Assembly: GCA_036170245.1 (NCBI GenBank)
Contig: JAVHOV010000004.1
Location: 1-23,532, forward strand
Length of the DNA: 23,532 bases
Direction of reading: 5' to 3'
From: an archaeon
GTDB lineage: Archaea; Iainarchaeota; Iainarchaeia; Iainarchaeales; JAAZKV01
Part shown: piece after piece, positions 5,190 through 20,412 of the stretch
Layout of the letters: the number at the start of each line of letters is the position of its first letter
Position numbering within the stretch: position 1 is the stretch's first letter
Made by a program: the position numbers and the translations under genes
The notes under the pieces: model-generated
Databases searched by the model: none
What the model was told of the DNA's origin: nothing
Seen by the model: only the letters and a program-made list of their open reading frames with translations

Positions 5190-6941
5190 TTATTCTTTCA
5201 TGATCATTTCGAGCAATGCTTTGGCAGCTGATTCTGGACCAGTTCCTTCCATCCCTTTTACTCCAAGCATTGTCCTTATTTGCCCAACTTTTATTTTATT
5301 CTCAAACAAAGCTAAAAAATATTTGTCAGCCAATTTATCATGCAATTCTTTGTATTGGATTGGCCCAAAAACATTTACAAAATAAGTCTCTGTAATTCCC
5401 GTTGAAGTAGTTGTGCCTTTACTCATGCTCCTTCCTCTTCTAAAAGTACAAATTGCGTCTGTATCTGTTTTAAATAATTCAAGAACTGGATGAGACTTGT
5501 CAACTTGCTCATAATTATTTGCATACAAAAAATAATCAACTTCTTGTCCTTTTAGAACCTCACCCATAGTAGTTATTGGCAAAACTACTCTTGCATTCTT
5601 TTTTTGAGGACTCATTATAATAGAACGGTCAATATTACCAAAAGCATATCCTGGATTTAAGTCATCAAGCCTGACAAACGCCCCCATTTCGGTACCGTAC
5701 GCTTTAATTTTTCCTTTTTCAATATTAAGTGAACTCATATCATCAAAAATAATTGTCATTTCCTTAATGTAATTCTCCCCTAACTTTCTAAAAGCTTCAA
5801 GTGATTCAGATTTACCTGCGCCAGTGTCCCCCATTATTACAATATTTGCAGATTTATTATTTTTCAAATCAATCTTCACCATCGCCCCATGAACTGGAAG
5901 CCTTCCCCTTTTCATCATTATAATATTGTGCAAAGTTAACATCATTTTTTTCAAATAACCAAAATAACCAAATTCATCACCGTCAGGAATTGAACCGACA
6001 AGAAGATTATTTTTTTCATCTTCAAAGAAAACAGTTGGCGCTGAATCAATACTCTTTGCAACACAATCAGGCACCCCAAACAAAAACACTGCATCAGGCT
6101 TTCGCTTTAACTGCTCCCCAGTTGCAAGATCAAATAAATTTGATAACGCAGTCCCAAGGCCAATAAATTTATTATTGAAAAAAACATGAATAATTAATTC
6201 TCCAACCTGAGCAGGATAACAAAGCCATTCATGCTCTTTTAGAGATTCAACAAAATCAAGAGGGTTTTTTTCTATTTTCTTAAATTCCCCATTACGAGTA
6301 TTATTAGGAGGATCAATAATCAAAGGAGGCTCTATTAACACCTGCTTAATGTAATTAACTTCTTCCAATTTTGTATAAGGATATGGAAGATTCAATTGCT
6401 CTTCAACAACAATCAAACCAACTTGAGCTCCAGCAGGAACCTGGCGATAAATCCGTGGATGCTCATTAGTAATATTTTCGCAAAGATCTCTGTAAAGCTT
6501 TCTTGTTAAATTATTTAAACTCTCAACAGTATCATTGAAAGTAGAATAAGGCCTTTCATGGTGACGAAACAAAAGCAAATCATCAGAGTAACAAATAAAA
6601 AATCTTTCATGAGTTCTCCAGAAATTATAAAAAGATTCAACAAATAAATTCAAAGTATAAAGATCCTTAAAATAATCTTCAAGTTTGGGATATTTTTGAA
6701 CAACAAACTTTTTTTGATACCTGGCTAATTGCTGAATCAAAAACAATAATTGCTCTTCATTCACATTATTAGGAAAAACTTTCAACAAAGAAGATTCTTT
6801 TTTTTCCAATTGAACAATGTATCTGTGAAACATTTCCTTAAACAGAGTAGAATAAGTTAAATCATCAGAATAAGCAGGCACTTTACCGTCGCTATAGATA
6901 ATCATCTGCTTGCCAAAAATACCGAATTTGTCATTACTCAT
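5190..6941 (-). CDS. Atypical phosphoenolpyruvate carboxykinase-like P-loop protein
   Basis: FGYLKK, LPVHGA, Walker A GDTGAGKSE, IFDD metal-binding pair, GTE.GAF and NAR motifs parallel the ATP-PEPCK active-site elements. I recognise it as the ~580-aa type annotated in anaerobic bacteria. Confidence 0.75.
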   Translation of the reverse strand: MSNDKFGIFGKQMIIYSDGKVPAYSDDLTYSTLFKEMFHRYIVQLEKKESSLLKVFPNNVNEEQLLFLIQQLARYQKKFVVQKYPKLEDYFKDLYTLNLFVESFYNFWRTHERFFICYSDDLLLFRHHERPYSTFNDTVESLNNLTRKLYRDLCENITNEHPRIYRQVPAGAQVGLIVVEEQLNLPYPYTKLEEVNYIKQVLIEPPLIIDPPNNTRNGEFKKIEKNPLDFVESLKEHEWLCYPAQVGELIIHVFFNNKFIGLGTALSNLFDLATGEQLKRKPDAVFLFGVPDCVAKSIDSAPTVFFEDEKNNLLVGSIPDGDEFGYFGYLKKMMLTLHNIIMMKRGRLPVHGAMVKIDLKNNKSANIVIMGDTGAGKSESLEAFRKLGENYIKEMTIIFDDMSSLNIEKGKIKAYGTEMGAFVRLDDLNPGYAFGNIDRSIIMSPQKKNARVVLPITTMGEVLKGQEVDYFLYANNYEQVDKSHPVLELFKTDTDAICTFRRGRSMSKGTTTSTGITETYFVNVFGPIQYKELHDKLADKYFLALFENKIKVGQIRTMLGVKGMEGTGPESAAKALLEMIMKE

Positions 6942-6979: not shown

Positions 6980-7067
6980 GGGTTTTAGAAAATAAGTGTA
7001 ATAAAATGAGCATCAATTACGAAAAACGAATTTTAATATTTTAAAAAAAGACTTTATAAAAAAATAA

Positions 7068-7222
7068 TGCAGCCGCCGGGAATTGAACCCGGAGCTCAAC
7101 CTAATTCCAAACAAAACACACTTTAAGTTTGGTCGAGCAACTTTGTTGCGAAGACCATACCCAGATGCGAACTGGCTGGGCAGTTCTGGGAAGGTTGCAT
7201 GATACCACTTCACTACGGCTGC
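7068..7222 (-). tRNA. tRNA-Gly(CCC) with 84-nt intron at position 37/38
   Basis: Minus strand GCAGCCG TA GTGA AGTGGTA TCAT G CAACC TT CCC A [intron 7186-7103] A GGTTG AGCT CCGGG TTCAATT CCCGG CGGCTGC A. Spliced length is 71 nt, discriminator A73, no encoded CCA. Confidence 0.92.
7103..7186 (-). other. tRNA intron with bulge-helix-bulge splice motif
   Basis: Exon TTCC (32-35) pairs with intron GGAA, flanked by 3-nt bulges CA^G and TT^A. The outer intron helix is short (2 bp), so this may be a relaxed BHB. Confidence 0.85.
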
Positions 7223-7318
7223 AATCTAACTATCAAGAACTTCAATTCTTTTTTTAAATTCACTCAATTCAGCAGTTTTTTAAATAAAACGATAGAAAAT
7301 TTGTTTAGTGATAAAATA

Positions 7319-7569
7319 GGCAGAAAGCGTTTTCTGCCCATTGCGAAGCACATGGGCAAAAATTCTTCAATGTAAAAGCAGTGCTTTTACGATGCGCCAC
7401 AAAACCAAGTGGTTTTGTTTGGTCGCGCACCTTAACAAGGTGCAAGGCTATCAAAGATAGCCAATTTTTTAGTGCACGTTTAATTGTCGCACAATTAAAA
7501 GTGCAAGGGCTACCAAAGGTACCCAAAAGTTTAATGCATGTTTAATTGCATCAGGCAATTAAAAATGCA
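7319..7569 (+). repeat. Array of nine stem-loops including two ~62-bp degenerate tandem units
   Basis: Inverted repeats at 7319-7338, 7335-7358, 7372-7390, 7399-7418, 7427-7443, 7446-7462, 7473-7505, 7507-7524 and 7535-7569. Tandem units at 7441-7501 and 7502-7565. Confidence 0.85.
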
Positions 7570-7637
7570 GGGCTAGCAAAGCGGTTATGCATTCCCCTGC
7601 AGAGGGAATTAGAGGGGTTCAACTCCCTTGCCCTGCT
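7567..7637 (+). tRNA. tRNA-Cys(GCA)
   Basis: GCAGGGC TA GCA AAGCGGTTA TGC A TTCCC CT GCA GA GGGAA TTAG AGGGG TTCAACT CCCTT GCCCTGC T. Discriminator U73, G37, 71 nt, no encoded CCA. Confidence 0.95.
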
Positions 7638-9083
7638 TTATTCAATCCTTTTTAATGGATCAAATTCATACACAACAATATTTTTTGTTTCCATAAAACG
7701 AGTAAATTCCATTCTTTGATCAAACCATTCGAGTCCTGGAGCAAAATTAAAATCTTTATAATACACAAAAAACCCAGGTTCATTCAAAGAACTATAATAT
7801 CTAAAAAATCTTGATTCAGATTGATAAAAAGTAAGAACCTTAAAATTTGAATAATAGGCATAAAGCGGGAAAAGAAAATTAGTATATATTACAGTATCAT
7901 TCGAGTACCCCTTTTCTTTGAGTGTTTCCACAATAAATTGCTCTTCAGGAACCGTATTATCAATTAAAGGTCTATTCAAGTTCAAAATTGAGGGTGCAAA
8001 AGAAAAACAAATAAGCAACAACAGAATAACAAAAAAAAGGCTTTTTATTATAAAATTTTTCCTTACATTGATCCACTCCAATGCCAATAATATCCCATGC
8101 ACCCCAAGAAGAAGTGACGGAATTGCTAAAGGCAAAAGCAAATATCTATCCTCCTTATGGGGAGTAAAACACATGAAAATAAACAAAGCAAAGAACCAAA
8201 TTAAAAGAAACAAATCTGAATTGTTTATTTTCATGCTCACTTTTTGTTTTTTTGCTTTTACACTTTTATTAAACCAATAAAAAATTAAAAAGAAGATGCC
8301 AAAAAAAGCAAGCAAAGAAAAATACCAAGGAAGAATATTAACATAAAATAAAACTGGGGTGTCCCAACCAGATACTGCACGAGCTGCACGCTGAAAAAGC
8401 GGAATTGCACCTAAGCTATAAAAAATAAAAGCACTTAAAAGATACAAAAACAAAACAATTGACGCTCCAATAAAATTTTCTTTTGAAAAAATAGATTTGA
8501 TCAAATTTTTTCTTTTAGAAATAACAAAAAACACAGAAAACACTACAAAAAGAACTAAAAAATCTAAAAGAGCAGCATATCTCGTCAAAATAGTGAATCC
8601 TACAAAAATGCCTGAAAGATAACCAAAAATTGGCTTTTTTGATTTATAAAATAAAATAAAAAAATAAAAACTAAATGACAAAAAGGATAACCCTGGAACA
8701 TCAGCAAGCATAGTATTTGAACTTGAAACTAAAGCAGGCAGAAAACAGGCTATTAACGCAGTAATCCACCCCACTTTTTCATTATACAATTCTTTTCCAA
8801 TAAAATAAAACAGAATTACTCCAATAGAACCTAATAAAGAAGTTATTATTGAAGCAGTAAAAATATGATGCCAGAAAATAAATCCAATCCCAAACAATAC
8901 AGAAATTAATAAGGGCCGGTAAAAAAGCTCATCATAATTATTATCTTTGAATCCAAACAAAACATCCGCATTCTGCAAGTAACTACACTCATCCCAGCCG
9001 CAATAATTCTGCAAAGGAAAGAGCCTAAGTGAAAAAGCAACAATAAAAAGCAATATTAAAAATAAAATTGGAACTAACTTCAT
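7638..9083 (-). CDS. GT-C membrane glycosyltransferase (PMT_2/ArnT/GT39-like)
   Basis: First TM helix followed by WDE..Y, then RPLL, many TM helices, D.P, TRY and HKEDRY, with a soluble C-terminal domain. ATG 9083 chosen over TTG 9089. Confidence 0.85.
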   Translation of the reverse strand: MKLVPILFLILLFIVAFSLRLFPLQNYCGWDECSYLQNADVLFGFKDNNYDELFYRPLLISVLFGIGFIFWHHIFTASIITSLLGSIGVILFYFIGKELYNEKVGWITALIACFLPALVSSSNTMLADVPGLSFLSFSFYFFILFYKSKKPIFGYLSGIFVGFTILTRYAALLDFLVLFVVFSVFFVISKRKNLIKSIFSKENFIGASIVLFLYLLSAFIFYSLGAIPLFQRAARAVSGWDTPVLFYVNILPWYFSLLAFFGIFFLIFYWFNKSVKAKKQKVSMKINNSDLFLLIWFFALFIFMCFTPHKEDRYLLLPLAIPSLLLGVHGILLALEWINVRKNFIIKSLFFVILLLLICFSFAPSILNLNRPLIDNTVPEEQFIVETLKEKGYSNDTVIYTNFLFPLYAYYSNFKVLTFYQSESRFFRYYSSLNEPGFFVYYKDFNFAPGLEWFDQRMEFTRFMETKNIVVYEFDPLKRIE

Positions 9084-9271
9084 AAGCAAATCAATTGTTT
9101 TTACATATTTAATTCTTTACCCAAACCAAGGACCTTAAACAATACATTTACCCCCTCCTTCTTTGTGCTTTTAACAACCTTTTTAAAGGTTTCATGAGAG
9201 AATTAATTTACAATGAGCTTGAAAAACAGCTAATTTTTAGTAAATAAATTAAGTTTAAAATGGTGAGCAAA

Positions 9272-10084
9272 ATGGGACTAAGACCAGCAAGATGTTATAG
9301 AGGAAAAAAAGTTAGATTAAGAAAAGGATCTAGTGGGCACGCAAGACAAACATGCATACAAAGAGCAAACACTAGAGTTGCAATCAATGTTCCTGATAAG
9401 AATTATATCGGAGCTGCACCACAATTGAAAATAAGACAATTCAACATGGGTAACCCTTTATTGCCTTATGATACTGTTGGAGATTTGGTTTCAAAAGACG
9501 CACTTGATATTAGAGATAATGCTATTGAAAGTGTAAGAAGCGGAGTTAACAGAATGCTAGTTAAGGCATTAGGAAAAGACGGTTACTTCATGAAAGTAAG
9601 AATTTTCCCATCTCACATAATGAGAGAAAATAAGCAAGCTCAGGGAGCTGGAGCTGATCGTGTTTCACAAGGAATGACTCTGCCATTTGGAATCCCAATT
9701 GGAAGAACATCAAGAGTTCGAAAAGGACAAGCATTATACAGTGTTCTTTGCATGAGTACTCAAAAAGATATTGTAAGGAAATGCTTACTAAGAGCAAAAT
9801 CAAAATTGCCTTGCAAAACACAAGTTGAGTTCCACAATGATATTAAGAGTTTAGGAACACTACCTTCAAAAGCAATCGAAGAAAAAGTAGTAGAAGTGAA
9901 GGTTGCAGAAGGAGCAGCAGCTACAGGTGCAGCAGGAACAACACCCGCAGCAGATGCAGCAACAGCAGGAAAGACACCTGCACCAGGAAAAGGACAAGCA
10001 GGAGCAAAAGTAGGCGCAGCAGGAACAACACCAGCTGCAGGGAAAACTCCCGCACCAGCAGCAAAACCAGCTGGAAAGAAATAA
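9272..10084 (+). CDS. rpl10e: 50S ribosomal protein L10e (uL16) with low-complexity C-terminal tail
   Basis: MGLRPARCYR, IRDNAIESVR, RENKQAQGAGADRVSQGM..PFG.PIG and AKSKLP. SD-like GGTGA at 9262-9266 favours ATG 9272 over 9260. Confidence 0.95.
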   Translation: MGLRPARCYRGKKVRLRKGSSGHARQTCIQRANTRVAINVPDKNYIGAAPQLKIRQFNMGNPLLPYDTVGDLVSKDALDIRDNAIESVRSGVNRMLVKALGKDGYFMKVRIFPSHIMRENKQAQGAGADRVSQGMTLPFGIPIGRTSRVRKGQALYSVLCMSTQKDIVRKCLLRAKSKLPCKTQVEFHNDIKSLGTLPSKAIEEKVVEVKVAEGAAATGAAGTTPAADAATAGKTPAPGKGQAGAKVGAAGTTPAAGKTPAPAAKPAGKK

Positions 10085-10096
10085 GGTTAGTTTTAA

Positions 10097-10128
10097 TTTG
10101 TGAAGCACTTAAAAAAGTGTTTCACAAA
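10097..10128. terminator. Hairpin between convergent rpl10e and peptidase E, putative terminator or stabiliser
   Basis: TTTGTGAAGCACTT-AAAA-AAGTGTTTCACAAA forms a 14-bp stem with one G.T pair and is followed by T runs on the + strand. Confidence 0.6.
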
Positions 10129-10146
10129 AATCTTTTTTTAAATTTT

Positions 10147-10917
10147 TTAATTCTTTTTAACTAAGTCACTAACTAGAACCCATTTATTTTTTATCAATTT
10201 TTCTTGGAAATATTTTCCTTTTGACCAAAATATTTTATAGCCATTTGCACTTGACTTTGAAGTAATTAATCTTGCTTCATTTCCAATCACTTCAATGGCA
10301 GAACAATTATCTAAAGCTATAGCAACCCCACTAGTTTTTTTCATCATCTTCTTTAAACTCAAAGGTCTATCCTTTTCTTTATCAAAGTGAGGACACAAAA
10401 GGGCAGGAACAAAATTTAGACATTTTAATTTTATATAATCAGCGTTTTTGTTTTTGAATTTTAAAGAATCAGAATTTCCTAGTTTAAACCAGCAAATGGC
10501 CCCCGCACTTAAACCAGAAAGAACAATTCCTCTGCTTCTTGCTTTCTCTAACATTTTGTCAACGCCAAATTTCTTCCAAATTCTTAACATTTTTAGAGTA
10601 TTCCCTCCGCCAACATAAATAATATCCGCAGAAAGAATCTTTTTTTCAATTTCTAATTTTGAATGCTTTTGTTTCTTCAAAAGCAATGAGTCAACAATAC
10701 AGCCAAGTTTTTTTCCAAAATAGTTTTCTACAACGCTAACATAACCGCTAGAATCTCCGCTAGCTGTGGGCAAAAATAAAAGTTTAGGTTTTTTTGATTT
10801 TTTTGAAATTCTAATTATTTCTTTATCAATAGAAACAGTTTCGATTGGATAAAATCCACCACCCTCCTTAGGCCTCCCTATCTCACCCCCTCCTATTGCT
10901 ACAATTTTTTGAATCAA
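10147..10917 (-). CDS. pepE: Peptidase E / S51 family (class I glutamine amidotransferase-like)
   Basis: IVAIGGGE, FLPTAS, YVGGGNT, nucleophile elbow GLSAGA and CPH. Start uncertain: TTG 10917 (after SD-like GACGTGA) or GTG 10947. Confidence 0.85.
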   Translation of the reverse strand: MIQKIVAIGGGEIGRPKEGGGFYPIETVSIDKEIIRISKKSKKPKLLFLPTASGDSSGYVSVVENYFGKKLGCIVDSLLLKKQKHSKLEIEKKILSADIIYVGGGNTLKMLRIWKKFGVDKMLEKARSRGIVLSGLSAGAICWFKLGNSDSLKFKNKNADYIKLKCLNFVPALLCPHFDKEKDRPLSLKKMMKKTSGVAIALDNCSAIEVIGNEARLITSKSSANGYKIFWSKGKYFQEKLIKNKWVLVSDLVKKN

Positions 10918-11033
10918 TAATCTCACGTCCTGCACAGTAAAGTGCACAAAGAAACTTATTTTTTATTGAATATAAAGCATTAGTTTTAATTAATGTAATA
11001 AAGAATACATTAACAAAAATACAAAAACTAAAT

Positions 11034-11645
11034 TTAAGAAAAAGCTGATTCTATTTTATTGATTCCGGCTGAGGAAAGGAGTTCGAATCCTTCCCCATCA
11101 TAATCAAATTCCACTATTGCGCAATCACTAATTTCACTCACTTCAAAGCCAAGTAATTCTCTGAAAATTACTGTTATAGGCCCTCCGTGTGTTACAAACG
11201 CAATTGCTTTTGTACCGCTTTCAAATTCATCATTGACAATCTCATTAAACGCTTTTGTAACTCTCTCTGCAAATTTATAATAATCTTCAGAACCAGTAAC
11301 ATGGTGATAAGGATTATTTGCTTCTAAGTCCTCAACATCATCAGGAAACTTTTCTTGCGCTTCACTTTTAACCATCCCAGTCATTACACCATACTGATTT
11401 CTTTCCCGTAAATCAGTAACACTGACAAGTTCAAACAAAACTTTCTTTTTTAAAATCAAAGCAGTTTCAACTGCACGAATTTTGGGACTAACAAAAAGTT
11501 TTGTAATTTCTTTCCCTTTTAATTTTTCTGCAAGTTCGTGAGCCTGCATCATCCCCTTTGTTGAAAGAGAATCATCATAATCTCCTCCGTAACGGTTCTC
11601 AACATCACCAGTAGTCTGGCCGTGTCTTACTAGAAATATTTTCAT
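11034..11645 (-). CDS. Histidine phosphatase family protein (phosphoglycerate mutase-like)
   Basis: LVRHGQT, LS..G..QA, SP..RA.ETA, LRE and VTHGG motifs. Confidence 0.9.
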   Translation of the reverse strand: MKIFLVRHGQTTGDVENRYGGDYDDSLSTKGMMQAHELAEKLKGKEITKLFVSPKIRAVETALILKKKVLFELVSVTDLRERNQYGVMTGMVKSEAQEKFPDDVEDLEANNPYHHVTGSEDYYKFAERVTKAFNEIVNDEFESGTKAIAFVTHGGPITVIFRELLGFEVSEISDCAIVEFDYDGEGFELLSSAGINKIESAFS

Positions 11646-11677
11646 GCTTCAACCTAAAGAAAACCTTAATCGGAATC

Positions 11678-11685
11678 TTTTTAAA
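11678..11685 (+). promoter_or_regulatory. Putative TATA box for ppsA (leaderless)
   Basis: TTTTTAAA ends about 25 nt upstream of ATG 11710, in the short divergent intergenic gap. Confidence 0.45.
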
Positions 11686-11709
11686 CATAAAAACAATCAC
11701 TATTGCAAC

Positions 11710-14700
11710 ATGCAAAACATACTTTGGTTTAGAGAAATCAACATGCAGAATATTGCAGAAGTTGGTGGAAAAGGAGCTTCACTAGGCGAAATGGAACAAA
11801 ACGGATTCCCTGTACCTACTGGATTTATTGTTACAAGCGGAGCATACTTTACATTTTTGCAGGAAACTAAAATACAGCAAAAAATCGTCCAAATGATTGA
11901 TGCAATAGATGTTGAAAATACTGCACAGCTTGAAGAAGTGAGTGCAAAAGTTCGAAAAATAATTGAGAATACTCCAATCATTCTAAAAATAAAATCAGAA
12001 ATTACTGCTAATTATAATATTCTTTCGCAAGGAACTCCTTGTTTAGTTGCTGTCAGAAGCAGTGCAACTGCAGAAGATTTGCCTGAAGCTTCATTTGCAG
12101 GACAACAAGAAACTTACTTAAATATTCAAGGACCTGAGGAAGTTGCAAGTGCAGTTCAAAGATGCTGGGCATCACTATTCACTGCAAGAGCAGTATACTA
12201 CAGAAAAAAACAAGGATTTGGAACTGAAAAAGTCGGTCTTTGCGCAGTAGTACAGAAAATGGTTGAGAGCGACGTGAGCGGAATAATGTTCACTGCAGAC
12301 CCTACTGGAGACAGAGAAACAATTGTAATTGAAGCAGGATTTGGACTCGGAGAAACAATTGTTTCAGGAAGCGTTACACCAGATAATTATGTTGTTGACA
12401 AATCAACGATGAAACTTGTAAGTAAAAAAATACTAAAACAAGAATGGATGCTTGTAAAAGAAGGAAAAGAAAATATTAGAGTAAACCTTGGACACGGAAA
12501 AAGCGATGTTCAAAAAATGAGTGACGAAAAAATAATTGAACTAGCGCAAATAGGAAAAAAAATAGAAGAGCACTACACAAAGCCAATGGATATAGAATGG
12601 GCAATGCAGGATGATGTTTTGTACATTGTACAAGCAAGACCAATTACAACATTAAAGAGCAAAGGTGACGGAGAAGAAATTGTAACAAGTGTGAAACCTA
12701 TTCTTGAAGGCTTACCTGCTTCGCCAGGAGTAATAACTGGAATCGTAAGAATAGTTCCTGAAATTGATGATATTGAAAAAGTAATGAAAGGAGATATTTT
12801 AGTAACAAAAATGACTTCACCATCTTGGGTTCCTGTAATGAAAAAAGCAAGCGGGATAATCACTAATGAAGGTGGTAGAACCTGCTTTGATGGAGAAACT
12901 AAACTTTTAACCAACCAAGGTTTTATGACATTTAAACAAATACATGAAAAAGGATTTGACGGACTTAAAGTAATATCTTTCAACAAGCAAACAAGGAAGA
13001 CTGAGTGGAAGCCGATTATATTTTCAATGAAACGAACTGCCCCAAAAATTACAATAAGTGTTTCACAATCAGGAAGAATCGACCACAATACAATTACACT
13101 CACCCCTGACCATAAAATGATTAACTTAAGAAATGCAGAAATAGTAGATACTGAAATACAAGAAATGCTAACTAAAAACGAAATGATTTGTATAGCACAC
13201 CATATTCCTGCACTAAGTGAAGCATCTGAAAAAGACCAAAAAATGGCTTATTTCCTTGGAGGAATAATGACTGATGGATCTATTTACCAATCACGCACAC
13301 ACGGAGAAGTTCAATTCATACAAAAAAATACTCTTGAAAAACAAGAATTCATTCAATACATGAATGATTGTGCAAAAACTTCATTCAATAAAGAATTTGC
13401 AATTTCAGAGAAAAAAATATCAAGCGGGTTTATAAGAGGAAATAAAGTAGAAGGAAGTGCAACAGCATATCGACTTTATTCAAAACAAATTGCTCAAGAA
13501 GTTAATACTGAAGAACAACAAATCACCCAAACATTATTGCAAGGAAATGAAGAAATAGCCTACAACTTCTTAGCAGGAGTGATTGATGGAGACGGCACAT
13601 TTTTTAACAACAGAATTAACATTTATGTTTCTGAAGAAAACTTATTACAAGGAGTTATAATCGCTTGTTTAAGAATTGACACAATACCCCAAGTAACAAG
13701 AAATAGAAATATATTCAATGTCCAAATTGTAGAAAAACTTGAGGAAATATTAAAACACACTAAAAGAGTAAAAGGGGATTTGAGAAAACAAAAAATCCAG
13801 ACAAGATTTTTTTCTGCAAAACAAGTTCAAACAAATGATTCGCCATACAGATTAATTGAAAGAGCTAAAAAAGATTTGTATATTTCAGACAAAGATTTAT
13901 TTAAAATTCAAAATCCAAAAGTGCAAGCAATTCTTAACAGCGATATTAGAATGCAGAGAATGATTAAAACGGATTTTGAAGAAATGGGGGATGTATACAA
14001 TATCACAGTAGACGACACCCATACATATTTGGTTTTTACTAAAAATTTAACCCCCCTTATTGTAAATAATTGCCATGCTGCAATAGTTTCTCGAGAACTA
14101 GGAATACCTTGCGTTGTTGGAACTAGCACTGCTACTGAATTATTAAAAGACGGAGAAGAAGTAACAATTGACGGATTCAACGGAAAAATTTACGAAGGAA
14201 AAATAAGTATTACTCATACAAAAAAAGAAATAGAAATGCTTAATGAGAATGAAGTTGACGAAGTAGAAGAAGCACTAGAAAAAGAATATGTTGAAGAAAA
14301 AATTGAAGTAAAAAAGAGAATTGGTTTGATTGAGAAAGTATTTGGCGGAATCAAATACAAAGAAATGAATAAAGATCAAAAAGCAGAAGAAGAAAAAGAA
14401 CTGCTTGAATTACTAAAAGACTTATCAATTAAAGTAAAAGTAAACGTTGCACTCCCTGATGCTGCTGAAAGTGCAGCCGCAACACACGCTGACGGAGTAG
14501 GACTACTCAGAGCAGAACACATGATTACTTCAAGCGGAATGCATCCTGCTGAATACATCAGACAAAATAAAGACACTGAACTAAAAGACAATGTGAAAAA
14601 AGGAATAAGATTAGTTGCTGAAAAATTCTCAGGACCAGTTTGGTTTAGAACGTTTGATGCAAGAAGCGATGAATACAAAGAACTAATCGGCGGAGACAAA

Positions 14701-15297
14701 GAACCAAAAGAAGAAAACCCAATGATTGGATGGCACGGAATTCGAAGAGACCTTGACGAAGACAGAATGCTAAAAGCACAATTAATTGCAATAAAAGAAT
14801 TATACTCCGAAGGAATAAAGAATGTTGGAGTAATGCTGCCATTTGTAATAAGCCTTGACGAAGTACTTGGAGCTAAAAAAATAATGCAGGAAATCGGACT
14901 GCCAAAAGAAGTTGATATAGGAGTAATGGTTGAAACTCCAGCAGCAGTATGGGTAATTGATGAATTAATCCCGCACATTAAATTCGTTTCATTTGGAACA
15001 AATGACCTAACACAACTAACACTAGGAATTGACAGAAATAATGAAAGAGTTCAAAAGAGCTTCTCAGAACTGCACCCAGCAATCTTGCGACAGCTTGAAT
15101 ATGTAATCAAGAAATGCAAAGCTGCAGGCGTTACTACAAGTATCTGCGGACAAGCTGCTTCAAACCCAGATATGGTAAAGAAACTAATCTGGTACGGAAT
15201 AGATTCAGTATCTGCAAACATTGATGCAGTTGAAGAAATCAGAAAAGTTGTGATATTAGAAGAAAAGAAAAAAGTACTTGAAATGTTTCGAAAATAA
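11710..15297 (+). CDS. ppsA: Phosphoenolpyruvate synthase (pyruvate, water dikinase), intein-containing
   Basis: VGGKGASLGE, VAVRSSATAEDLPEASFAGQQET, DIEWA, QARPIT, spliced GGRTCHAAIVSRELG phospho-His motif, GLLRAE, FGTNDLTQ and SICGQ. Start set to ATG 11710 (MQNILWF). Confidence 0.95.
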   Translation: MQNILWFREINMQNIAEVGGKGASLGEMEQNGFPVPTGFIVTSGAYFTFLQETKIQQKIVQMIDAIDVENTAQLEEVSAKVRKIIENTPIILKIKSEITANYNILSQGTPCLVAVRSSATAEDLPEASFAGQQETYLNIQGPEEVASAVQRCWASLFTARAVYYRKKQGFGTEKVGLCAVVQKMVESDVSGIMFTADPTGDRETIVIEAGFGLGETIVSGSVTPDNYVVDKSTMKLVSKKILKQEWMLVKEGKENIRVNLGHGKSDVQKMSDEKIIELAQIGKKIEEHYTKPMDIEWAMQDDVLYIVQARPITTLKSKGDGEEIVTSVKPILEGLPASPGVITGIVRIVPEIDDIEKVMKGDILVTKMTSPSWVPVMKKASGIITNEGGRTCFDGETKLLTNQGFMTFKQIHEKGFDGLKVISFNKQTRKTEWKPIIFSMKRTAPKITISVSQSGRIDHNTITLTPDHKMINLRNAEIVDTEIQEMLTKNEMICIAHHIPALSEASEKDQKMAYFLGGIMTDGSIYQSRTHGEVQFIQKNTLEKQEFIQYMNDCAKTSFNKEFAISEKKISSGFIRGNKVEGSATAYRLYSKQIAQEVNTEEQQITQTLLQGNEEIAYNFLAGVIDGDGTFFNNRINIYVSEENLLQGVIIACLRIDTIPQVTRNRNIFNVQIVEKLEEILKHTKRVKGDLRKQKIQTRFFSAKQVQTNDSPYRLIERAKKDLYISDKDLFKIQNPKVQAILNSDIRMQRMIKTDFEEMGDVYNITVDDTHTYLVFTKNLTPLIVNNCHAAIVSRELGIPCVVGTSTATELLKDGEEVTIDGFNGKIYEGKISITHTKKEIEMLNENEVDEVEEALEKEYVEEKIEVKKRIGLIEKVFGGIKYKEMNKDQKAEEEKELLELLKDLSIKVKVNVALPDAAESAAATHADGVGLLRAEHMITSSGMHPAEYIRQNKDTELKDNVKKGIRLVAEKFSGPVWFRTFDARSDEYKELIGGDKEPKEENPMIGWHGIRRDLDEDRMLKAQLIAIKELYSEGIKNVGVMLPFVISLDEVLGAKKIMQEIGLPKEVDIGVMVETPAAVWVIDELIPHIKFVSFGTNDLTQLTLGIDRNNERVQKSFSELHPAILRQLEYVIKKCKAAGVTTSICGQAASNPDMVKKLIWYGIDSVSANIDAVEEIRKVVILEEKKKVLEMFRK
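12883..14070 (+). mobile_element. Intein (396 aa) with LAGLIDADG homing endonuclease
   Basis: Junctions T/CFDGETK and LIVNN/C. Block B ITLTPDH, endonuclease motifs FLGGIMTDG and FLAGVIDGDG, block F VYNITV. Removing it restores GGRTCHAAIVSRELG. Confidence 0.93.
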
Positions 15298-15353
15298 ACT
15301 CTTAATTTTCAAGCAAAATAAGCAATTTAACCCTTTCTAAACAGTACTTTACT

Positions 15354-16340
15354 ATGCTACAACTTGATTTAACTAATGCTATAAAAGACCTAAAAAAAAT
15401 AAAGGCAAAAAACGTATTCTTGCAAATCCCTGAAGGATTAAAAGTCAAAACTGAAGGAATTATTGCTGAACTTGAGGAAAAAGGATTTAATGTTACTACT
15501 TCAATGGACCCATGCTACGGTGCATGTGATATTAAACAATCAGAAGCAAAACAAATGGGATGTGACGCAATACTTCATTTAGGGCACACAAAATTTGTTG
15601 AAAAAAGTTCAATTCCAATTGTATATGTTCCGCTAAAATATGATTTAGGAGATAGATTCTCTCGAATTGTTAAAATAATTATTGAATATCTGCATGATGA
15701 GAAAATAACTGAAGTTGGATTAACCACTACTGCACAATTCTTGAACTATTTGCCAGAAATAAAAAAGGAACTTGAAAAAGAAAAAATAAAATGTGTCATA
15801 GGAAAAGGAAAAAGAGTAGAAGACGGACAGGTATTAGGATGCAACTACTCAAGTGCACAAGTAAAAGCAGAAAATATAATTTACCTTGGAGACGGATTAT
15901 TTCACCCGCTTGGGATACACTTCTCAACCCAGAAGAAAGTAATTATTGCAAACCCTTTAATGCTTGAAATAAAAACCTTAAACGAAGAGAAAGACAAATT
16001 TATCAGACAAAGAATTTTACTTATTGAAAGAGCAAAGAATGCCACAGAGTATGCAATACTTGTAACTACAAAAGAAGGACAAAACAGAATCACTGAAGCA
16101 CTGAAGATAAAAAAGGATTTAGAAAAAGCTGGCAAAAAAGCAAAAATATATTCAATGGATTTTATTTCACAAGAAGCACTCTTAGGAATTAACGCAGAGG
16201 CATTCATCAATACAGCATGCCCAAGAATTTCAATTGATGATTACTTTAATTACAAAAAACCAATTATTAATTACACTGAAGTTGAGTACATGCTTGGGAA
16301 GAAGAGCTACGACAACTTTAGTTTAGCGGTTGTTTACTAA
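15354..16340 (+). CDS. dph2: Diphthamide biosynthesis radical-SAM enzyme Dph2
   Basis: LQIPEGLK, the three Fe-S cysteines in PCYGACD, GQVLGC and TACPRI, and GDGLFH. Confidence 0.93.
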   Translation: MLQLDLTNAIKDLKKIKAKNVFLQIPEGLKVKTEGIIAELEEKGFNVTTSMDPCYGACDIKQSEAKQMGCDAILHLGHTKFVEKSSIPIVYVPLKYDLGDRFSRIVKIIIEYLHDEKITEVGLTTTAQFLNYLPEIKKELEKEKIKCVIGKGKRVEDGQVLGCNYSSAQVKAENIIYLGDGLFHPLGIHFSTQKKVIIANPLMLEIKTLNEEKDKFIRQRILLIERAKNATEYAILVTTKEGQNRITEALKIKKDLEKAGKKAKIYSMDFISQEALLGINAEAFINTACPRISIDDYFNYKKPIINYTEVEYMLGKKSYDNFSLAVVY

Positions 16341-16342
16341 TT

Positions 16343-17215
16343 TTATTCTAAATTCTCTTCAGAATTGTTTGAAGAAGATTCAGTTCTAACAATTGTTCCC
16401 TTAAATTCTAATCCTCTAATGCAGTTCTTGAAATTATTTAAATCTTCTCCACTAATGAAAGAAGATCTTATTTTGCTTCTCTGAATTATTGCTGCTGCAT
16501 GAGGGTCAACAAAAGTATGTGCACCTGGTTTTGAAGCCTGAGCTTTCAACAAAGAAACCATTTTTACATGAGATAATTCCTTGTACATTTTTGCATTAGG
16601 TTCAGCTTTAGGATCCGCACTGTAAATTCCATCAACGTTGCTCAAATTAACAAACTCTGCATTCATCATTTCTGCAATTATTGCAGCAACTGAATCAGTT
16701 GTTTGACCAGGAGTTGTCCCTCCAAATACAGGAGTCTTTCCCAAAAGAAGAACATTCTCTGCCTGTTTTGGATCAATTAGAACCTCTTTCCAAGCATTAT
16801 CAATAATATGAGTGAAAAGCATTGCATTAGCTCTTGTAATTTGAATAGCAACCTCATCCAAGTCAAAGTTATTTGCTCCAAGAGCTTTCGCTCCTGCCTG
16901 GTAAACTCTAGCAACTCTTCCCCCTCCAACAACTATTACAAATTCATAACCATCACGCTTCAATTCATTAATTGTTTCACAGAACTTTGCAATCTCAGGA
17001 GCCCTTAATTTATCACTGAAAAAAACACTTCCACCAACACTCAAAACAAAAGTCTTGCTTCTAATTGAAGAATAATTTGAATTATAGGAATCACTTGTAG
17101 AAGAAGTTGAAGACTGAGAATATTCGCTTGAATTGGAAGAAGACTCATTAGAAGTAGTAGTTGAAGAAGATTCACTCTTTGGCGTACCATCAAACTTTTC
17201 AAATAAATCAAACAT
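16343..17215 (-). CDS. pyrH: UMP kinase, archaeal type, with Ser-rich N-terminal extension
   Basis: VLSVGGS, VVGGG, LD..AI..TR.NA, GGT.PGQTTD and NVDGIY..DP. SD GGAGGAG favours ATG 17215 over 17230. Confidence 0.92.
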   Translation of the reverse strand: MFDLFEKFDGTPKSESSSTTTSNESSSNSSEYSQSSTSSTSDSYNSNYSSIRSKTFVLSVGGSVFFSDKLRAPEIAKFCETINELKRDGYEFVIVVGGGRVARVYQAGAKALGANNFDLDEVAIQITRANAMLFTHIIDNAWKEVLIDPKQAENVLLLGKTPVFGGTTPGQTTDSVAAIIAEMMNAEFVNLSNVDGIYSADPKAEPNAKMYKELSHVKMVSLLKAQASKPGAHTFVDPHAAAIIQRSKIRSSFISGEDLNNFKNCIRGLEFKGTIVRTESSSNNSEENLE

Positions 17216-17346
17216 TACAATCTCCTCCATTGCATCGAGTTTACGAAGATGCTATTTTCGCGACAAAGCAAAGTCCTTGACTTTGCGAGTCCAACAAAAT
17301 TCTTTGTTGGATCCTTAATTAAGGCTCTTTTGAATAAATCAAACAT
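17215..17346 (-). CDS. Putative 43-aa upstream ORF sharing its start (MFDLF) with pyrH
   Basis: MFDLFKRALIKDPTKNFVGLAKSRTLLCRENSIFVNSMQWRRL*. SD-like GGGGTG 7 nt upstream. Its TAA overlaps the pyrH ATG (TAATG). No recognisable family. Confidence 0.35.
   Translation of the reverse strand: MFDLFKRALIKDPTKNFVGLAKSRTLLCRENSIFVNSMQWRRL
17232..17324. repeat. Hairpin/palindrome cassette between 14-bp direct repeats
   Basis: Inverted repeats at 17232-17252, 17262-17291 and 17290-17311, plus palindrome CCTTAATTAAGG at 17313-17324. Direct repeat AATAAATCAAACAT at 17202-17215 and 17333-17346. Confidence 0.8.
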
Positions 17347-17499
17347 CAAAAAACACCCCATTAGGAAAGCAAATTAGCTTATTTTAGCTCAACTGAAAGC
17401 TTTTATAAGCTAACGAAACCGAATTATATTAAGTTTACTAGTTTAAATACTTTCTTAAGTTATTTAAATTTTAATAAAAAAAGAACAAGTTGATATAAA

Positions 17500-19143: not shown

Positions 19144-20412
19144 ATGAAAAAGATGACTGAACAATTTTTTACTAACACCCCTGCCTTAAAGGGAAGAGTA
19201 AAGCAAAGATACTCTGACTTTATGGTTGAAGAAATACTAAACGACGGCACTGTGTGCAGGATAAAAAGATTCAACACTCCTTTTGAAGAAAGGGAAGCAA
19301 CTCCTGAAATAGTAATCCCTCCAAGGACTGATGAAGAATATTTACTAGTTGAAATGGAAAAAATAAATTATGATACTGCCACTGCACTTGCATTACTTTC
19401 AAGAGGATTAAATGTCAGCAAAAAAAGAATAGGATACGCAGGACTAAAAGATAAACGAGCAATCACCTGCCAGCAAATAAGTATTTATTTGCCTGATGAA
19501 GAATTAATAAAAAAATTCGGAGTAAAAGGAATTGAAATTAGAAACCCTAAATGGAGCAAAGACAGAACTGAACTAGGACACTTGAAAGGAAATGAATTTA
19601 CAATTACAATAAGAGATATCTCTAATACTGAAGAAGAAATAAAAAAAATCCTTGAAGAATTCATAACAACTTCACAAAAAGGAGTCCCTAACTTTTTTGG
19701 AAACCAGCGTTTCGGCGGAAAAAGAATGATTACACACAGAGTTGGAAAACTGCTTTTGGCAGGAAAATTCGAAGAAGCAGTAATGCTTTACTTAACTGAA
19801 ACTTATGAAGAAGAAAAAATTGAGTTAAAAAACGCAAGAATAAACTTAGCAAAATCAAGAGACTTAAAACAGGCTCTAAAAGAATACCCGTTTGATGCAA
19901 GAACTGAAAGAGCAATAATAAATCATTTGGTTCAGCACCCTGCTGATTTTGCAGGAGCATTTGGAGTACTTCCTAAAAAAATGAGATACTTATTCTCACA
20001 CGCAGTACAAAGCGATATTTACAACAAAGTTCTTACAAAAAGAATGGAAAAATATAAAGAGCATGCGCTTGAACCAATTGACGGAGATGTTTTGATTGAA
20101 GGAGTACCTGTAATAATACTCCCTGGATATGAAAGCAAGTTTGCAGAAGGAGCGGCAGGAGAACTTGAAAAACAAGCAATGCAAGAAGTGGGAATAACAT
20201 TTGAAGAATTCAAAACCGCAAAAATGAGTGAACTCTCAAGCCAAGGAGATAGGAAAGCAATTTTACTAAAACCAGAAAATTTTACAATTGAAAAAATATT
20301 TGACGATGACTTTAATGAAGGAAAAAAAGCTGTTACAATAAAGTTTTTCCTTTCACGCGGGAATTATGCTACAACAATTTTACGAGAACTTATAAAAGAA
20401 GAAATATTCTAA
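19144..20412 (+). CDS. truD: tRNA pseudouridine(13) synthase TruD
   Basis: DF.VEE, YAGLKDKRAIT.Q with the catalytic Asp, GNEFTITIR, PNFFGNQRFG and F.L.RG.YAT..LRE. Confidence 0.95.
   Translation: MKKMTEQFFTNTPALKGRVKQRYSDFMVEEILNDGTVCRIKRFNTPFEEREATPEIVIPPRTDEEYLLVEMEKINYDTATALALLSRGLNVSKKRIGYAGLKDKRAITCQQISIYLPDEELIKKFGVKGIEIRNPKWSKDRTELGHLKGNEFTITIRDISNTEEEIKKILEEFITTSQKGVPNFFGNQRFGGKRMITHRVGKLLLAGKFEEAVMLYLTETYEEEKIELKNARINLAKSRDLKQALKEYPFDARTERAIINHLVQHPADFAGAFGVLPKKMRYLFSHAVQSDIYNKVLTKRMEKYKEHALEPIDGDVLIEGVPVIILPGYESKFAEGAAGELEKQAMQEVGITFEEFKTAKMSELSSQGDRKAILLKPENFTIEKIFDDDFNEGKKAVTIKFFLSRGNYATTILRELIKEEIF

Follow-up and report, generated by a model that had tools for sequence, protein, structure and literature searches.

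Eukaryotic short interspersed elements (SINEs) are mobilised by target-primed reverse transcription, and the small dispersed repeats of cyanobacteria and the double-hairpin elements of fungal mitochondria, tiny covarying hairpins in introns and RNA genes that are not known to carry long duplications, spread to our knowledge without a known enzyme. In the tRNA genes of Thermoproteales, introns of the bulge-helix-bulge (BHB) type are described as transposed, with similar introns in different tRNA genes and gain and loss among relatives (Fujishima et al., 2010, in the account of PMC4033280). The palindromic elements of Rickettsia and the repeats that Suyama et al. (2005) described in archaea are 100-150 bp long, with long stem-loops and terminal inverted repeats, according to PMC2229807. 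Here we examine a stretch of 23,532 nucleotides (the window), contig C4 of the genome G000 of an archaeon of the class Iainarchaeia (867 kb, 86% complete, ~33% G+C), in which a tRNA-Gly intron, an array in front of tRNA-Cys and a cassette in front of a pyrH-like gene are built from small hairpins. These three loci belong to a family of folded elements of 55-130 bases, here typified by an element we call E; at a given site, one close relative carries an element and another lacks it. We regard the reality and mobility of the family as nearly certain.

We liken E to the cyanobacterial and fungal mitochondrial elements by their general description, not by sequence. Like a SINE (the term is defined in PMC13343696), E is short, structured and non-coding, with duplications of variable length, one exact and one ragged edge and no inverted repeats; unlike a SINE, it has no partner reverse transcriptase that we could find and no poly(A), is not tRNA-derived (no Rfam match) and is sited at RNA ends. 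Unlike the Thermoproteales introns as described in PMC4033280, E is also found free outside tRNAs, in both orientations and with target duplications. With the Rickettsia and Suyama repeats it shares a folded form, a place in both protein and RNA genes and a mover that is unknown, but its pseudoknot and long duplication are not described in the available part of PMC2229807. Long target duplications, variable in E, recall IS1549, IS1634 and casposons, one of which uses tRNA-like targets; unlike E, all of these are kilobase-sized, enzyme-coding and bounded by inverted repeats in the accounts of PMC2266710 and PMC10359463. For a casposon we further note that Cas1 was not found in G000 (86% complete) and shows no enrichment across 151 genomes.

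The original prediction called the family REP/MITE-like, a label that does not fit. MITEs (miniature inverted-repeat transposable elements) should carry terminal inverted repeats and a short duplication of fixed length, whereas the ends of E pair within separate stems (alignments A2 and A3), its repeats span 15-78 bp (median 23) and its ends are unlike those of the resident insertion sequences (ISs) by eye. Repetitive extragenic palindromes (REPs) and bacterial interspersed mosaic elements, served by REP-associated tyrosine transposases, likewise form mosaic clusters of small hairpins, but E shows no GTAG/CGTC tag by eye and no association with Y1 transposase, which occurs in 1 of 22 genomes of the family, and makes long duplications (compared with the description in PMC3733652). 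No published description of the element family was found in a literature search that reached few subscription papers, and the available text of a 2026 survey of archaeal transposons, whose supplements could list such repeats, has 0 occurrences of 'Iainarchae' or 'tRNA' (PMC13343696). We rate the family as new but of a known broad kind, the small non-autonomous repeats; should the mechanism discussed below hold, the family would be new as a category.

One folded element at the tRNA-Gly and pyrH loci

Read in the direction of the tRNA-Gly transcript, E comprises ~57 nt: a 5' hairpin, a short linker and a 3' stem, which runs from 2 bp through an A-A mismatch, 5 bp and a TTC/TC internal loop to a variable hairpin. 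In a frequent variant, the pseudoknot type, base pairs form between the linker and the 6-nt loop of this hairpin. This fold is supported by an alignment of 18 pseudoknot-type copies (A3), in which 96% of cells pair against 26-36% in slid controls and 15 of 19 pairs, including all 4 of the pseudoknot, show two-sided changes; by covariation in 29 copies, the 3' stem behaves like the pseudoknot type. Both the intron in tRNA-Gly and the cassette in front of pyrH are copies of this one element. The pyrH copy belongs to the plain-hairpin type, and a double hairpin, D, lies nested within its first stem; the cassette folds with z=-4.46. Coordinates are collected in Table 1, with scores from R1, a covariance model trained on 32 copies of E.

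Table 1. Features of the hairpin loci in the window
Feature	Position	Strand	Remarks
tRNA-Gly(CCC) gene	7067..7223	-	84-nt intron at position 37/38; aragorn with introns
tRNA-Gly intron, relaxed BHB	7103..7186	-	starts exactly at first base of E
Element E, pseudoknot type	7126..7186	-	R1 52.5 bits (copy itself in training set); covariation
E 3' stem in intron, TTC/TC loop	7154-7133	-	TCTTCG..CTCGA
E pseudoknot parts in intron	7186-7181/7174-7169; 7179-7176 with 7164-7161	-	6-bp stem; loop pairing with linker
Left array	7319..7443	-	antisense E-type 5' hairpin (7443-7427), D (7372-7418), further hairpins; by eye
tRNA-Cys start copy 1 (+1..+15)	7442..7462	+	extended into fold-back hairpin
Module X1	7463..7502	+	T-run, AGTGCA, hairpin, AGT
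tRNA-Cys start copy 2	7503..7524	+	with fold-back hairpin
Module X2	7525..7566	+	outer stem pairs with first tRNA bases
tRNA-Cys(GCA)	7567..7637	+	intact
pyrH-like gene, amino-acid-kinase family	16343..17215	-	intact; Pfam PF00696; name from the original prediction
Upstream open reading frame (ORF), 43 codons, through element	17215..17346	-	TAA and pyrH ATG share one base
Element E, hairpin type, with nested D	17228..17327	-	R1 31.5 bits, E-value 1.2e-6
pyrH cassette parts	17327-17313; 17311-17268; 17261-17250; 17249-17235	-	5' hairpin; D; GCGAAA linker; TCTTCG..CTCGA
Copy of pyrH leader and first 20 coding bases	17327..17362	-	26/36 identical to live copy

The hairpin chains, their positions, both TCGAG..CGAAGA hairpins and both gene-start copies are all present as originally claimed, and the proposal of shared modules holds in part. 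The loop motif closed by stems of at least 3 bp occurs 4 times in the genome against 0-1 times (mean 0.15) in 20 Markov shuffles, with three of the four in tRNA introns (Gly, Glu and Gln). By contrast, the other two of the three motifs proposed to link the loci are weak. GTTTGGTCG has 4 genomic matches where a base-composition estimate expects ~2.7, about chance, and the two CCCA..TGGGCA matches differ in fold: the one in the intron is the pseudoknot read on its reverse strand, the one in the array a plain hairpin. The bare TCTTCG..CTCGA pattern without stems is not enriched in the genome over a reversed control; one match inside a reverse transcriptase gene on contig C30 was dropped for lack of a closing stem. 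Hammerhead, hepatitis delta virus and kink-turn readings of the GA/GAA loop were also rejected, their register conflicting with the covarying stem (by eye, against consensus forms). The pseudoknot, and the 43-codon ORF that the pyrH start copy opens, had been missed. Rfam matches only tRNA-Cys in the window; at eight congener loci it returns tRNAs and a C/D box small RNA, which is one insertion target, and nothing credible on the element.

The tRNA-Gly intron has the features of a BHB intron: a bulge-helix-bulge at position 37/38 (a 4-bp TTCC/GGAA helix, two 3-nt bulges and an outer intron helix of only 2 bp), a spliced product that folds as a tRNA and a splicing endonuclease encoded in the same genome; splicing is predicted. 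Congener G003 has an intron-less version of the gene whose sequence is identical, base for base, to the spliced exons. Among 11 congeners that show the gene, seven have an intron and four have none, and the type of intron does not track PyrH similarity. Another genome (G052) has identical copies of E located at two different tRNA-Gly genes.

The tRNA-Cys array

The array in front of tRNA-Cys folds strongly (z=-10.05) and is not scored by R1, which does find the intron and the pyrH cassette. Its left part has an antisense E-type 5' hairpin adjoining the first tRNA-Cys start copy, and its module order matches that of a tRNA-Gln intron on contig C21 (by eye). We regard the array as built from modules related to E, an assignment by module order read by eye. 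The leader of tRNA-Cys in 16 congeners is short in six, holds module X in five and other inserts in four, and is truncated in one; X1 precedes tRNA-Cys in five congeners and also tRNA-Glu in G003. One locus (L094) has three target copies with two different inserts between them. The tRNA-Cys gene itself (L028-L044) is identical in G000, G012, G018 and G015 and 10% different in the nearer G008 and G003, a sequence pattern hinting at exchange of tRNA genes.

The same double-hairpin modules form chains that flank rRNA genes (G000:C26:16067-16285 and 19945-19987), and such modules also lie inside predicted ORFs (G000:C2:11429-11512, C14:18102-18181 and C35:25651-25698).

Distribution and presence or absence at orthologous sites

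R1 matches occur in 19 of 22 genomes of the genus and in 55 of 151 genomes of the class, spread over 23 of 59 genera, which goes against one of the refuting outcomes named in the original prediction, a lack of further copies. There is no match in families f3 (0/13), f17 (0/12) and f30 (0/14), where variant elements would be missed; R1 overlooks such variants, for example in G018, so an R1-blank genome does not equate to absence of the element. Of 50 loci from an all-species scan for the E core, 39 are archaeal outside Halobacteriales (9 titled Candidatus Iainarchaeum, 4 Micrarchaeota and 26 other archaea), and all but one of these give a full-length R1 match of at least 30 bits. The other 11, all non-DPANN, give one weak full-length match (27 bits), nine partial matches and one none, and are treated as chance. 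Viral contigs gave 0 matches to one exact pattern, a narrow test.

Copies of E are more alike within than between genomes (0.646 against 0.612; 0 of 2000 label permutations), and one site holds different element variants in different genomes. At the pyrH leader, 11 of 16 readable congeners are empty, three have hairpin chains with three different 3' modules and two are ambiguous. These empty alleles, with the four intron-less tRNA-Gly genes, show that the loci are not fixed among relatives and agree with the original proposal of a hairpin family that is modular, mobile and non-autonomous, rebuilds the ends of genes and is tolerated within BHB introns. The three loci are not an assembly artefact, because contigs of four runs of the same study (not independent) show no difference or gap at any of them. 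No empty allele in the source population was seen in the read contigs, which drop rare variants. In congeners, scaffold N-gaps at four loci (L049, L090, L093 and L117) coincide exactly with element copies, which suggests arrays of element plus repeat in tandem; such an array is assembled without a gap at L074.

Insertion marks

We collected 97 new copies of E outside the training set, mostly from the 150 matches listed of 265 and a few from the genus scan, of which only better-scoring R1 matches were retrieved; junctions were counted in all 97, and repeats in these and the 32 training copies. Direct repeats of 15-78 bp (median 23, the longest inflated by tandem copies) flank 14 of the 97 new and 11 of the 32 training copies, against 1 of 129 controls, and a second test finds them in 13 new copies against 0 of 97 controls. 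In 18 of these 25 copies the repeat ends within -3 to +1 nt of the 5' edge of E; at the 3' side the gap ranges from -8 to 241 nt. In a scan of our genome, among 21 low-energy candidates, ~10 are hairpin inserts between direct repeats, against 1-5 in shuffles, including a perfect 28-bp repeat on contig C26, a 44-bp repeat at a thiolase start on C40 and repeats at the ends of tRNA-Gly, -Trp, -Lys and -Tyr.

Insertion edges fall at tRNA 5' and 3' ends, at position 37/38, and at start and stop codons. The 5' edge adjoins a tRNA 5' end (+1) on the opposite strand in 35 of the 97 new copies, where rough chance is 0.002 per copy; it coincides with a tRNA intron start in eight, follows a tRNA 3' end in six and lies near an ORF start, antisense, in nine, with 25 unclassified. 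Antisense inserts near the ends of protein genes duplicate sequence up to the stop codon, with an overshoot of -2 to +2 nt in five of six and 22 nt in one. By eye, no constant tetranucleotide stands at the exact edge in the 97 junctions. Two further parts of the original prediction, insertion at gene starts and a fixed orientation, are not supported: the commonest class is antisense at tRNA 5' ends, E inserts both sense and antisense, and gene 3' ends and stop codons are also duplicated. Gene-start duplication is one outcome of several.

Duplicated starts of protein genes

The upstream copy of the pyrH start matches the live copy at 9 of 16 leader and 17 of 20 coding positions. A thiolase start is duplicated around E in 4 of 31 genomes of the family (G000:C40:19602-19752, L117, L221 and L231), each time with the junction at +44, and in two other genomes (L227 and L233) an antisense element adjoins the same ATG. 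In all five sense inserts examined at protein starts (pyrH and four thiolase alleles, two loci), the upstream start copy leads into an open ORF with a stop that overlaps the live ATG, whereas a shuffled element keeps the ORF open in 10% of trials. These open mini-ORFs suggest that translational coupling is under selection. The idea that the thiolase and pyrH duplications enclose a BHB intron was rejected, as no conserved helix is seen by eye.

A 182-bp block of the tRNA-Cys array is 93% identical between G000 and G008, against only 48% (39/82) at fourfold sites of pyrH, and the thiolase inserts of the same two genomes agree at 58 of 63 positions against 89 of 148 fourfold sites (60%). Transfer between species at orthologous sites fits both these near-identical inserts and the codon pattern of the thiolase copies described below; the alternative is strong selection. 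The N-terminal extension of PyrH (window 17060-17215) is Ser-rich and variable in length, behind an MFDLFEK start conserved across the genus.

Search for the moving enzyme

As originally stated, no enzyme for the element is encoded in the window. Our genome encodes two reverse transcriptases, PriS and DDE fragments, the last belonging to an IS with its own inverted repeat and with ends other than those of E. Y1, TnpB, Cas1, IS110 and Thg1 were not found in this genome, which is 86% complete and has most IS interiors unassembled; since IS-like ends sit at contig breaks, these interiors are missing from the assembly. The contig ends (C7, C11, C12, C2, C20, C14, C10, C28 and others) form at least five multi-copy families, one of them a DDE IS with inverted repeats and several presumably ends of IS200/IS605 type; by eye, and with IS interiors mostly unassembled, none matches E.

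The 151 genomes give no sign of a Y1 transposase or reverse transcriptase accompanying the element, in counts that ignore kinship and assume the same genome draw for each enzyme. Y1 does not track E (13/55 positive against 21/96 negative genomes, p=0.84), nor do Cas1 (3/55 against 11/96) or reverse transcriptase, detailed below. Among 561 ORFs neighbouring E, no enzyme gene recurs, and only housekeeping genes are seen (by eye from translations).

Mechanism and alternative explanations

The observations to be explained are a shared covarying fold with a pseudoknot, one exact edge, long variable repeats, sites at RNA boundaries, nesting of E, D and X, and repeated hits at the same sites. Our preferred account is SINE-like and target-primed: a borrowed polymerase would copy an RNA template into staggered nicks where transcripts end. 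It explains jointly why one edge is exact and the other ragged, why the duplication varies and why the sites lie at RNA boundaries; this preference is tentative and falls somewhat short of an even chance. The polymerase would come from the host or a passing mobile element, and the target 3'-OH would prime synthesis beginning at the exact edge. Fill-in of the stagger would give the duplication, fold-back of a free end the hairpins on the tRNA-Cys copies, and repeated insertion or recombination between repeats the arrays. To survive, a copy would have to be removed by RNase P, RNase Z or the splicing endonuclease, or else come with a duplication that restores the gene and an open mini-ORF that passes ribosomes on. 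Transfer of elements together with their flanks, between co-occurring species and at orthologous sites, is probable too. A fuller version, which we consider doubtful, is a prokaryotic SINE: a pseudoknotted RNA parasite of ~57 nt, copied in at cellular RNA ends by a polymerase other than a classical reverse transcriptase, its own exact end cut out by tRNA processing, homing between species at orthologous genes and an ongoing source of new tRNA introns within its lineage.

Several points weigh against target-primed copying, whose weak point is the missing enzyme. Reverse transcriptase (PF00078) does not track E (7/55 positive against 9/96 negative genomes, p=0.59) and occurs in only 6 of 22 congeners, though a divergent or transient reverse transcriptase may remain compatible with this null. 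E has no poly(A) tail, and ~86% of new copies lack a duplication, including 34 of the 35 antisense tRNA-start copies. In E-strand stems, A-C exceeds G-T (19 against 5; p=0.007, from non-independent copies), favouring folding of the opposite strand, that of the GA/GAA loop in the original prediction; the terminal pseudoknot pair is T-G in 13 copies, which runs contrary to this strand signal. Upstream copies at protein starts do not decay as a neutral duplication would: at the four thiolase loci, the codon differences between upstream and live copies comprise 23 synonymous and 4 non-synonymous ones, and both copies hold lineage-specific residues. Finally, R1 was trained on tRNA-associated copies, and of its matches only better-scoring ones were retrieved, which may bias the site classes.

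The same mobile family could instead move through a single-stranded DNA intermediate, with host enzymes such as the template-switching primase PriSL and a flap nuclease patching a folded copy into breaks that lie at transcription bubbles or at the borders of R-loops. Fold-back hairpins at junctions, PriS in our own genome and the lack of any reverse transcriptase association agree with such patching; we know of no archaeon without PriSL, however, and R1 is blank in the whole of families f3, f17 and f30, while DNA alone would hardly mark mature tRNA ends and position 37/38. We consider this unlikely but a serious contender, the more so as Sulfolobus PriSL polymerises across discontinuous templates (reported in PMC3333859). 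An unrecognised integrase or transposase, Cas1-like or IS1634-like, that makes a long staggered cut and recognises the fold instead of inverted repeats has precedents in the 8-514 bp repeats of IS1549 and IS1634 (PMC2266710) and in a casposon with a 14-bp duplication and tRNA-Leu-like sites (PMC10359463), and the contig breaks of our genome do carry active IS ends with mostly unassembled interiors. Yet E has a single exact edge and no terminal inverted repeats, Cas1 and Y1 are not enriched with it, no IS110 was found in our genome, the DDE fragments belong to an IS with its own inverted repeat, and the neighbouring ORFs yield no recurring enzyme by eye, all of which makes an integrase quite improbable.

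The near-identity of the array block and the thiolase insert in G008, set against far more diverged fourfold sites, and the open frames of all five sense inserts would also suit elements that are mostly a domesticated RNA device serving end protection, processing or translational coupling, which selection maintains and which spreads mainly through interspecies recombination at orthologous loci. Most relatives lack each insert, as the thiolase duplication illustrates, perfect repeats of 23-43 bp at genes unrelated to one another call for fresh insertions, and the same site holds different variants in different genomes, so that we give this account little credence. Least probable is that no mobile unit exists and that hairpins grew in place, when chance tandem duplications were followed by quasi-palindrome template switching. 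On the two tRNA-Cys copies the fold-back arms do look locally templated and may still be explained in this way; for E itself local growth is refuted by the same 57-position architecture at dozens of unrelated loci in 55 genomes, and identical copies at different genes speak against it as well.

Other features of the window

In a peptidase S51 gene (10296-10792), blocks of 8-20 substitutions differ between contigs of the four runs, set between almost identical flanks; the population thus holds a mosaic made by recombination. A PEP-synthase-like (phosphoenolpyruvate synthase-like) gene (11644-15297) contains an intein with a LAGLIDADG-like domain. A 583-aa ORF (5190-6941) has no Pfam match; its P-loop region presumably resembles that of PEP carboxykinase.

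Implications

The combination of an exact edge at RNA boundaries and long variable duplications, with no enzyme found, fits no prokaryotic family tested. How archaea gain tRNA introns is an open question, and the likely spread of E at RNA ends would show one route. This route is testable, because congeners hold both filled and exactly empty alleles of the same tRNA gene and the intron sequence is also found as a free element elsewhere. If copying is RNA-templated, it points to an unknown polymerase activity in DPANN archaea.

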